Shown piece after piece: positions 65 to 61,789 of a stretch of DNA of 64,000 nucleotides; position 1 is the first letter of the stretch, and the number at the start of each line of letters is the position of its first letter. The stretch lies in assembly GCF_003334405.1 (NCBI RefSeq), contig NZ_QOWM01000003.1. The stretch is one strand, 5' to 3'. The DNA is from Escherichia coli. Its GTDB lineage: Bacteria > Pseudomonadota > Gammaproteobacteria > Enterobacterales > Enterobacteriaceae. The position numbers and the translations under genes were made by a program. The notes beneath the pieces were generated by a model. The model worked only from the letters and a program-made list of their open reading frames with translations, made no database searches and was not told where the DNA came from.

Positions 65-1194
65 TCAGGCTACCTCATCTTTATCCAGCATGTTGAATTT
101 GTATGCAGTATAAACGTTCATGTTCTTATTAAAGTAGTACCAGGTACCAACTTCAATGTAGTTCACACGGTCAGCGTCAACATATCTATGTCCGGGTACC
201 CCTTTGATATCTTTACCTTTAGAGTACACATAACCTAAGGACGGACGCAGACCAAAGTCGAATTGATACTGAACAACCGCTTCAAAGTTCTGGGTTTCAT
301 TGATAAGTTGATCACGCATTATTGTATTGCCTTCTCGATCGGCAACACCTGTATCAATAGAACCCGGAGTCATATTACGAGTTTCGCCGTACATTACAGC
401 TGCGTAGACATTTTTCGCGTCATACTTTGCAGCCAATGACCACAGTTCAGCATTTGAACCGTTTCCATCGGCAACTTGATCGTTGGTGCGATCAGATTTG
501 CTATATGCACCAACGATACCAAAACCATTGATGTTATAGTCTACAGACAACGCATAGCCGTCACCATTTTGTTTCTTAGTGCTACGGTTGCTGTTTTTGC
601 CTTGGTACTGAATCGCAAAATCAAGACCATCAACCAGGCCAAAGAAATCATAGTTACGGTAGGTTGCAACACCGTTGGTACGACCATTCATGAAGTTGTC
701 AGCGGAAGCCCAGGAATCGCCACCCCATTCAACTAACATATCGGTATAAGCTGCGGCATCATAAGCAACACCGTAGTTACGGCATAGTCAAATGATCCTA
801 ACTCGTTATATTTCAAACCGGCGAAGGTTAAACGGGTTTTTTCTTGGTTTTCACCTTCGGGCTTGCTGGCGTCGAGGTTGTATTCAAACTGACCAAAACC
901 AGTCAGTTCGCTGGTGATTTGGGTTTCACCTTTAACACCGAAACGAGCATAGGAGGTATCTTCGTTTTCGCTGTTATTATCATCAGTATTTGACCAGATG
1001 CGTTCGCCAACCATCTTGCCGTAGAAATCAACTTTATTGCCATCTTTATTATAAATTTCAGCCGCATTTGCTGCGCCAGCAACTAATAACGCCGGGACCA
1101 GCATTGCCAGAACTTTTCTTTTCATTATGTATTCCCTTGTGATTATAATCTTCATGAATATATCAATAAGTGCCGTTATCCAAAAAAAGCACAT
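65..1194 (-). pseudogene. yedS: OmpC/PhoE-family general porin, disrupted (YedS-like)
   Basis: Minus-strand ORFs 733..1194 (signal peptide [21 protein letters not shown]) and 65..739 ([23 protein letters not shown] porin motif) form one porin split by a 1-base frameshift near 783-786; C-terminus ends ...MLDKDEVA without the usual terminal Phe. Confidence 0.8.
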
Positions 1195-1434: not shown

Positions 1435-1530
1435 TAAAAAAAGCCGGCATCATGCCGGCCCAAAAAATATAAACAAGACGATAAAAGGCTAATAACGGAG
1501 GCATCATGACACAGAAAAATAAAAAGGTAT
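1435..1530 (-). ncRNA. Candidate small RNA ending at a strong intrinsic terminator (position matches RseX of K-12 as recalled)
   Basis: Minus-strand hairpin GCCGGCATGATGCCGGC (1443..1459) followed by a T8 run, in the yedR-yedS intergenic region; 5' end not determinable from sequence. Confidence 0.3.
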
Positions 1531-1689
1531 AATTGTATTCAGTGCTAATATATTGATTAAATGAATTAATAAAGCCGATATCAAAGATAAATAAAATCGC
1601 TCAAAACGATTTTTACTGTATTCACTGCCGTTGCGCAAAATTTATCTATTTGTTCAAAAAATGATTGAGTCTTGACTGGCTCATTCAAT

Positions 1690-2055
1690 GTGGAAAAATG
1701 TGACTTTTATCACATAATAGTACTAAGTCTGAATTTTCCGGGTTATCTCAAAATGGAATACGGTTCGACAAAGATGGAAGAGAGACTCTCTCGCAGCCCT
1801 GGCGGCAAACTGGCTCTGTGGGCTTTCTATACACGGTGTGGCTATTTCGTCTGGGCAATGGCGCGTTACATCTGGGTGATGAGCCGGATCCCCGATGCCC
1901 CCGTGTCGGGATTTGAAAGCGATTTAGGCTCTACCGCGGGAAAGTGGTTAGGGGCACTGGTCGGATTTTTATTTATGGCTCTGGTCGGGGCATTGTTAGG
2001 CAGCATTGCCTGGTACACCCGACCTCGTCCCGCACGTAGCAGACGCTATGAATAA
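1690..2055 (+). CDS. yedR: Inner membrane protein YedR
   Basis: ORF with two hydrophobic segments; start ambiguous (TTG 1672, GTG 1690, ATG 1753); synteny next to yedJ. Confidence 0.65.
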   Translation: MEKCDFYHIIVLSLNFPGYLKMEYGSTKMEERLSRSPGGKLALWAFYTRCGYFVWAMARYIWVMSRIPDAPVSGFESDLGSTAGKWLGALVGFLFMALVGALLGSIAWYTRPRPARSRRYE

Positions 2056-2856: not shown

Positions 2857-4275
2857 ATGCAGGAAAATATATCAGTAACCGATTCATACAGCACCGGGAA
2901 TGCCGCACAGGCAATGCTGGAGAAACTGCTGCAAATTTATGATGTTAAAACGCTGGTGGCTCAGCTTAATGGTGTGGGTGAGAATCACTGGAGCGCGGCA
3001 ATTTTAAAACGTGCGCTGGCGAATGACTCGGCATGGCACCGTTTAAGTGAGAAAGAGTTCGCCCATCTGCAAACGTTGTTACCCAAACCACCGGCACATC
3101 ATCCGCATTATGCGTTTCGCTTTATCGATCTATTTGCCGGAATTGGCGGCATCCGTCGCGGTTTTGAATCGATTGGCGGACAGTGCGTGTTTACCAGCGA
3201 ATGGAACAAACATGCGGTACGCACTTATAAAGCCAATCATTATTGCGACCCGGCGACGCATCATTTTAATGAAGATATCCGCGACATCACCCTCAGCCAT
3301 AAAGAAGGCGTGAGTGATGAGGCGGCGGCGGAACATATTCGTCAACACATTCCTGAACACGATGTTTTACTGGCCGGTTTCCCTTGTCAGCCATTTTCGC
3401 TGGCTGGCGTATCGAAAAAGAACTCGCTCGGGCGGGCGCACGGTTTTGCCTGCGATACTCAGGGCACGCTGTTCTTTGATGTGGTGCGCATTATCGACGC
3501 GCGTCGTCCGGCGATGTTTGTGCTCGAAAACGTCAAAAACCTGAAAAGCCACGACCAGGGTAAAACGTTCCGCATCATCATGCAGACGCTGGACGAACTG
3601 GGCTATGACGTGGCTGATGCAGAAGATAACGGGCCGGACGATCCGAAAATCATCGATGGTAAACATTTTCTGCCGCAGCACCGTGAACGCATCGTGCTGG
3701 TGGGTTTTCGTCGCGATCTTAACCTGAAAGCCGATTTTACTCTGCGTGATATCAGCGGATGTTTCCCTGCGCAGCGAGTGACGCTGGCGCAGCTGCTGGA
3801 CCCGATGGTCGAGGCGAAATATATCCTGACGCCGGTACTGTGGAAGTACCTCTATCGATATGCGAAAAAACATCAGGCGCGCGGTAACGGCTTCGGTTAT
3901 GGAATGGTTTATCCGAACAATCCGCAAAGCGTCACCCGTACGCTGTCTGCGCGTTATTACAAAGATGGCGCGGAAATTTTAATCGATCGCGGATGGGATA
4001 TGGCCACGGGTGAAAAAGACTTTGACGATCCGCTGAATCAGCAACATCGTCCACGTCGGTTAACGCCTCGGGAATGCGCGCGCTTAATGGGTTTTGAAGC
4101 GCCGGGAGAAGCGAAATTCCGCATTCCGGTTTCGGACACTCAGGCCTATCGCCAGTTCGGTAACTCGGTGGTCGTGCCGGTCTTTGCCGCGGTGGCAAAA
4201 CTGCTTGAGCCAAAAATCAAACAGGCGGTGGCGTTGCGTCAGCAAGAGGCACAACATGGCCGATGTTCACGATAA
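2857..4275 (+). CDS. dcm: DNA cytosine-5 methyltransferase Dcm (CCWGG)
   Basis: 472 aa; C5-MTase motifs FAGIGG (AdoMet), GFPCQPFS (catalytic PCQ), FVLENVKNL (ENV); 3' end overlaps vsr. Confidence 0.95.
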
Positions 4276-9861: not shown

Positions 9862-9948
9862 AACACATCAGATTTCCTGGTGTAACGAATTTTTTAAGTG
9901 CTTCTTGCTTAAGCAAGTTTCATCCCGACCCCCTCAGGGTCGGGATTT
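9862..9948 (+). ncRNA. dsrA: DsrA small regulatory RNA
   Basis: 87-nt sequence AACACATCAGATTTCCTGGTGTAACG...CCCGACCCCCTCAGGGTCGGGATTT recognised as DsrA, ending in a GC hairpin plus T-run. Confidence 0.9.
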
Positions 9949-43172: not shown

Positions 43173-43248
<76 letters not shown>

Positions 43249-43302
43249 GTTTAAAAGACATCGGCCTCAAGCGGATGTCTGGCTGAAAGGCCTGAAGAAT
43301 TT

Positions 43303-43376
43303 GGCGCGTTAACAAAGCGGTTATGTAGCGGATTGCAAATCCGTCTAGTCCGGTTCGACTCCGGAACGCGCCTCCA
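43303..43376 (+). tRNA. cysT: tRNA-Cys (GCA)
   Basis: 74 nt, anticodon loop ATTGCAAAT, 3' CCA. Confidence 0.95.
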
Positions 43377-43388
43377 CTTTCTTCCCGA

Positions 43389-43474
43389 GCCCGGATGGTG
43401 GAATCGGTAGACACAAGGGATTTAAAATCCCTCGGCGTTCGCGCTGTGCGGGTTCAAGTCCCGCTCCGGGTACC
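43389..43474 (+). tRNA. leuZ: tRNA-Leu (TAA)
   Basis: About 86 nt with long variable arm, anticodon loop ATTTAAAAT, 3' CCA. Confidence 0.93.
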
Positions 43475-43517
43475 ATGGGAAAGATAAGAATAAAATCAAA
43501 GCAATAAGCAGTGTCGT

Positions 43518-61676: not shown

Positions 61677-61704
61677 TTCTCCCGATTTCCTCAATTGAAA
61701 TGAA

Positions 61705-61731
61705 CCCGATGATCTGCGCATCGGGTTTTTT
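61705..61731 (+). terminator. Intrinsic terminator after cheW
   Basis: Hairpin CCCGATG atctgcg CATCGGG followed by T6. Confidence 0.8.
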
Positions 61732-61762
61732 ATTTCAATTTCGCGGCGGGTGGCATCAGCAA

Positions 61763-61789
61763 TAAAGTTTCCCCCCTCCTTGCCGATAA
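61763..61789 (+). promoter_or_regulatory. Sigma-28 (FliA) promoter of the tar operon
   Basis: TAAAGTTT-N11-GCCGATAA, exact consensus, about 30 bp upstream of tar. Confidence 0.85.

Follow-up and report, generated by a model that had tools for sequence, protein, structure and literature searches.

The small RNA gene rseX of Escherichia coli, re-identified beside a frameshifted porin gene

Several of the small RNAs (sRNAs) closest to the locus described here are linked to porins. The gene for MicF adjoins ompC and that for MicC adjoins ompN, and each represses a different porin; the idea of porin adjacency is not new for such sRNAs. RseX resembles them in being encoded beside a porin gene and in being predicted to pair with the start regions of the ompC and ompA mRNAs and not with that of its neighbor, but it is co-oriented with this neighbor, whereas MicF and MicC are divergent from theirs. 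RseX also has no sequence in common with MicF or MicC, and its porin neighbor is a pseudogene here. The U tail of the terminator is the 3' Hfq-binding element of Hfq-dependent sRNAs. Like RseX, the sigma-E-dependent MicA and RybB need Hfq to repress ompA and ompC, and the requirement for sigma-E activity is relieved when RseX, or either of these two, is over-expressed; RseX differs from them by its sigma-70-type promoter, the lack of a known link to sigma-E, and its silencing by H-NS. Finally, SdsR and ArrS repress fepA through their terminator loops, as does the 3' terminator region of RseX (PMC11979758), although the sequence of RseX is unrelated to theirs and its response to the fepA StemComp mutant is different (PMC11979758).

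RseX itself is described from work in K-12. There, it represses ompA and ompC through Hfq, as cited in PMC8313858 and PMC7648144, and it was found in published experiments to bind and repress fimB and ihfB directly. A sigma-70 promoter and 5' RACE are cited for the K-12 gene in PMC8313858. H-NS, backed up by StpA, silences rseX, with a published H-NS motif at about -42 to -32; the RNA is undetectable in wild-type K-12 and is seen in hns mutants or when expressed from plasmids, Northern blots of the hns mutants giving a band of about 91 nt and a shorter one of about 75 nt (PMC8313858). As for fepA, it is repressed by the segment of RseX that runs from nt 52 to the 3' end; Hfq, RNase E, and the nucleotides of the terminator loop are required, mutations in the loop impaired repression, and direct pairing to fepA does not appear to be involved (PMC11979758). 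RseX has been published as a variable sRNA that was lost in several lineages.

The stretch of DNA analyzed here (the window) covers 64,000 nucleotides of an E. coli contig (NZ_QOWM01000003.1). An earlier note, made from the sequence alone, had pointed to a minus-strand hairpin upstream of a porin gene as the possible end of a candidate sRNA in the yedR-yedS interval, with RseX in mind. This candidate is indeed RseX: we are highly confident that positions 1436-1525 of the minus strand are rseX, a 90-nt trans-acting sRNA gene that would have its own sigma-70 promoter, an Hfq module, pairing to ompC and ompA, and silencing by H-NS (features in Table 1). The Rfam model RF01401 (rseX), whose gathering score is 50, aligned to this interval over all of its positions (1–94 of 94) with 96.7 bits (E = 4.9e-12 with the whole window searched). 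In the K-12 MG1655 record, the "small regulatory RNA RseX" (rseX, b4603, 2033649-2033739) is flanked by drpB, once called yedR, and by the yedS pseudogene, and the RNA gene of the window likewise lies between drpB and a yedS-type porin gene, on the strand of the porin.

Table 1 Features of the rseX locus in the window
Feature	Position	Strand	Basis and remarks
rseX small RNA gene, 90 nt	1436..1525	-	Rfam RF01401 and alignment to K-12 b4603
Terminator hairpin GCCGGCA-UGA-UGCCGGC	1443..1459	-	7 bp, 3-nt loop; sequence scan and fold
U7 tail of the terminator	1436..1442	-	Counted; A-run on the plus strand; U8 in K-12
U/A-rich stretch UUGUUUAUAUUUUUU, nt 50-64	1462..1476	-	Unpaired in MFE and centroid folds
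Invariant block CGUUAUUAGCCUUUUAUCGUC, nt 29-49	1477..1497	-	Predicted target-pairing region
5' stem-loop of the Rfam model, nt 14-38	1488..1512	-	Weak; greatest variability in loop nt 24-28
-10 hexamer TACAAT	1532..1537	-	-12 to -7 from the RseX 5' end; same in K-12
Weak -35-like TTAATC, 3/6, 17-bp spacer	1555..1560	-	Sequence geometry
yedS-type (OmpS1-type) porin gene	65..1125	-	Frameshift near 733-739
drpB (formerly yedR)	1753..2055	+	Divergent neighbor; K-12 and FORC 064 annotation

Alignment to the K-12 reference, the check that had been proposed for the candidate, bore out the identification. The two genes differ by two substitutions and one indel over 91 nt (88 of 90 aligned bases identical), and both ends coincide: the RNA begins where the K-12 gene is annotated to start and finishes on the final U of the terminator tail. 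The flanks are about 98% identical. The differences are an A in K-12 that is a U in the window at nt 9, a U that is a C at nt 26, and a tail shorter by one U (U7 instead of U8). The drpB-rseX-yedS locus, its strand relationship, the ends, the terminator hairpin with its loop, and the -10 hexamer are otherwise the same, and the orthology with the experimentally defined b4603 thus holds in identity and in ends. A segment of 631 bases that spans the drpB-porin intergenic region (1130-1760) is 100% identical to strain FORC 064. The feature is therefore an already known sRNA gene, present as a common natural allele. The NCBI PGAP pipeline leaves rseX unannotated in most RefSeq genomes, which is why the gene looks like an orphan terminator. 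The present analysis shows which gene this is and where it lies, its terminator and promoter geometry, how far it is conserved, and its complementarity to the targets. That the RNA is transcribed, depends on Hfq, represses its targets, is silenced by H-NS, and acts through its loop is taken from published K-12 work; the window allele would be expected to behave like K-12 RseX. Two other Rfam RNAs were detected in the window, DsrA at 9862-9948 on the plus strand (RF00014, 102.5 bits), whose terminator lies at about 9922, and C0465 at 61696-61773 on the minus strand (RF00116, 111.6 bits), as well as a cluster of three tRNAs at 43173-43475 on the plus strand: Gly(GCC), Cys(GCA), and Leu(TAA).

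The hairpin that had drawn attention to the locus proved to be a genuine Rho-independent terminator at the 3' end of RseX. The minus strand reads GGGCCGGCA-UGA-UGCCGGCUU followed by a T-run, and the core stem (GCCGGCA/TGCCGGC) contains seven perfect pairs, six of them G-C, which lengthen to nine (1441-1461) when two G-U pairs are added. The T-run was counted as T7, not the T8 first reported, which is the K-12 length. A strict census of terminators on both strands of the 64-kb window, requiring a stem of 7 bp or more without mismatches and with five or more G/C, a loop of 3–6, and a T-rich tail, yielded only four loci, that of DsrA among them; the rseX hairpin is thus not a chance feature. The statement that no minus-strand coding sequence lies upstream of it also stands, since only mechanical ORFs of 44 and 35 amino acids are listed there and none is annotated in the K-12 or FORC 064 records. 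The models for RyhB (21.7 bits) and STnc430 (21.9 bits) also gave hits that overlap the terminator; these were rejected, as both fall far under their gathering scores and are driven by a generic hairpin and U-run. Because the rseX hairpin, loop included, has the K-12 sequence, it probably carries a regulatory role beyond termination in the window allele as well.

The minus-strand sigma-70 promoter looked for at 1525-1560 was found in part: the -10 hexamer lies exactly at -12 to -7, whereas the -35 matches the consensus at only three of six positions. A consensus promoter scan of the window did not call the rseX promoter, for this best -35 (TTAATC) is so weak. It should be noted that this -35-like element overlaps the H-NS motif, whose position was carried over from K-12 by sequence identity. 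The drpB-porin intergenic region has a GC content of 29.7%, against 49.9% for the window, and such AT-richness fits the published silencing of rseX by H-NS and StpA. On the opposite strand, at 1506-1533, lies the site that comes closest to the sigma-70 consensus in the first 4 kb (11/12, ATGACA-16-TATAAT); its -35 falls within RseX nt 15-20, a segment that does not vary between species, and its -10 shares 2 bp with that of RseX. This predicted site would start a divergent transcript near 1540, toward drpB. It was rejected as the drpB promoter, as the mapped one corresponds to 1690-1753 (PMC7648144); the drpB start is published as ATG-22 (PMC7648144).

On the other side of rseX, the porin gene is split into two minus-strand ORFs in different frames (733-1194 and 65-739), and its start codon (A of the ATG at 1125) lies 310 nt downstream of the terminator. 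The FORC 064 record labels it "porin, frameshifted", and yedS is a pseudogene in K-12. Just past window position 1, fragments of IS600, IS30, and other transposases adjoin the porin pseudogene in FORC 064 (L002, 1-1884), indicating that the far side of the porin was disrupted by insertion sequences. A 10-nt inverted repeat without mismatches (ATTCAGAATT-ATG-AATTCTGAAT) was observed at 1290-1312, in the very AT-rich stretch (about 24% GC) that separates rseX from the start of the porin gene, with AATTATGAATT motifs nearby at 1296 and 1328; a regulator of the porin promoter may bind this repeat. Past drpB, yedJ (HD phosphohydrolase, 2095-2790) and dcm (DNA-cytosine methyltransferase, 2857-4275) follow on the plus strand in the order found in K-12, with an orientation reversed relative to the K-12 record.

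An in silico search of complete E. coli genomes revealed the 90-nt RNA in 4877 of 5426, about 10% being devoid of it, which agrees with the published description of RseX as a variable sRNA. The window allele, at an identity of at least 99%, was carried by 852 of the 4877 rseX-bearing genomes. Beyond E. coli, species-representative genomes were scanned with a 23-base pattern and the hits were scored with Rfam, which led to homologs over the threshold in E. albertii, E. whittamii, two more Escherichia species, and Citrobacter amalonaticus. In the latter, the gene order (yedJ-drpB-rseX-porin) is the same as here and the porin homolog (L006, 2291-3457) is intact. The 23-base pattern had no match in a representative genome of Salmonella, although RF01401 is listed for S. 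Typhimurium in a TraDIS paper, where RseX is reported as required. Across eight sequences from seven species-level genomes, nt 12-20, nt 29-49, and the terminator stem were invariant, while differences were seen in the flanks, at the 5' end, and in nt 24-28, which form the loop of the first hairpin. One compensatory change (G-C to A-U) was noted at the base of the terminator stem in Citrobacter.

The overall fold of RseX was not unusually stable compared with shuffled sequences (z = -1.5), and no covariation supported the 5' stem-loop among the aligned homologs; this hairpin is neither supported nor contradicted, because it never varies in an informative way. The UUGUUUAUAUUUUUU stretch just 5' of the terminator, which was unpaired in the folds, is probably part of the Hfq-binding module, going by the general features of Hfq-dependent sRNAs. 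Target pairing was predicted with a windowed, accessibility-corrected method, as full-length RNAduplex hybrids with the ompA and ompC leaders were over-extended and barely beat shuffled sequences (8% of which equaled them for ompA and 3% for ompC) and were rejected. With the windowed method, the conserved single-stranded region was complementary to the translation-initiation regions of both targets: RseX nt 30-44 with ompC -15 to +1, a segment that includes the Shine-Dalgarno sequence as well as the start codon, and nt 37-50 with ompA -21 to -7, which includes the Shine-Dalgarno sequence. Only 1 of 200 shuffled sRNAs equaled RseX for the local ompC hybrid, and 0 of 200 for that of ompA. No complementarity was detected with the start region of the neighboring porin, for which 177 of 200 shuffles were as good or better. 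Both substitutions relative to K-12 lie outside the nt 29-49 block used by the two pairings. The change from U to C at nt 26 turns the first loop into CCUCC, with an alternative predicted pairing to ompC -28 to -9, to which we give little weight since this loop is the least conserved part of RseX.

These observations fit a mechanism in which a primary RseX transcript would start from its own sigma-70 promoter (-10 at 1537 to 1532) and would end at the Rho-independent terminator from which the locus was spotted. The U7 tail, together with the U-rich stretch before the hairpin, would form the Hfq-binding module, and the single-stranded nt 29-49 would pair with the Shine-Dalgarno and start-codon regions of ompC and ompA, blocking translation and lowering the levels of these mRNAs; fimB and ihfB would be further targets, as published. 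Repression of fepA would take a separate route, through the 3' part (nt 52 to the end in K-12) by means of the terminator loop, Hfq, and RNase E. The gene would normally be off, given its AT-rich DNA and its silencing by H-NS and StpA in K-12.

Three other explanations were weighed, and all are much less likely than a functional rseX. The locus could be rseX by descent but inert, a remnant that H-NS keeps silent at all times next to a porin gene that is itself dead. The absence of detectable native RseX in wild-type K-12 (PMC8313858), a porin neighbor that is frameshifted here and a pseudogene in K-12, the weak -35 element, and the roughly 10% of complete E. coli genomes without the RNA, in line with the published losses, would all agree with this. 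We nevertheless consider it improbable, because the RNA is intact and because, where flanks and loop diverge, neither the pairing block nor the terminator changes between E. coli and Citrobacter, which points to purifying selection on the RNA. Moreover, the porin has decayed and the sRNA has not, and RseX is required in S. Typhimurium according to the TraDIS study.

Still less probable, and in our opinion very unlikely, is a cis-acting element, in which the hairpin would belong to the 5' leader of a long porin transcript and control read-through as an attenuator. Such an arrangement could account for the shared orientation, the distance of 310 nt to the porin start codon, and the linkage kept in Citrobacter, where the porin is intact. 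However, the terminator is strong (six G-C pairs, then U7), no alternative antiterminator fold was evident when the RNA was folded, and the RNA has no complementarity to the start region of the porin. Separate promoter-like sites are also present on the minus strand between the terminator and the porin (1311-1284 and 1245-1218), and published work reports both a discrete product of about 91 nt on Northern blots (PMC8313858) and the action of RseX in trans from plasmids. As for a small protein, a 31-codon ORF (1507 to 1412 on the minus strand, with its AUG at RseX nt 19) does appear in the mechanical listing and is translatable. It was rejected, and its probability is negligible: no Shine-Dalgarno sequence precedes the AUG, the ORF crosses the terminator so that the transcript would finish before the stop codon, and Citrobacter has AUU in place of the AUG, with the downstream codons lying in the variable loop.

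A functional rseX is by far the preferred explanation. The value of this result as a discovery is small: a curated E. coli sRNA was correctly re-identified from raw sequence. It is of modest use in that the allele of this strain retains the pairing block and the terminator loop relevant to fepA, that the RNA and its porin linkage reach Citrobacter, and that the sRNA is conserved although its porin neighbor has decayed. More speculatively, RseX and the adjacent yedS porin might form a single H-NS-silenced "porin-exchange" unit from Citrobacter to Escherichia, in which the sRNA, once released from silencing, would clear OmpC and OmpA for the alternative porin. The conserved linkage, the predicted pairing with ompC and ompA without pairing to the neighbor, and the invariant sRNA beside a frameshifted porin are compatible with this proposal, which we regard as possible but rather doubtful. 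If it were correct, the decay of the porin while the sRNA was kept would imply selection for the roles of RseX on fepA, fimB, and ihfB.
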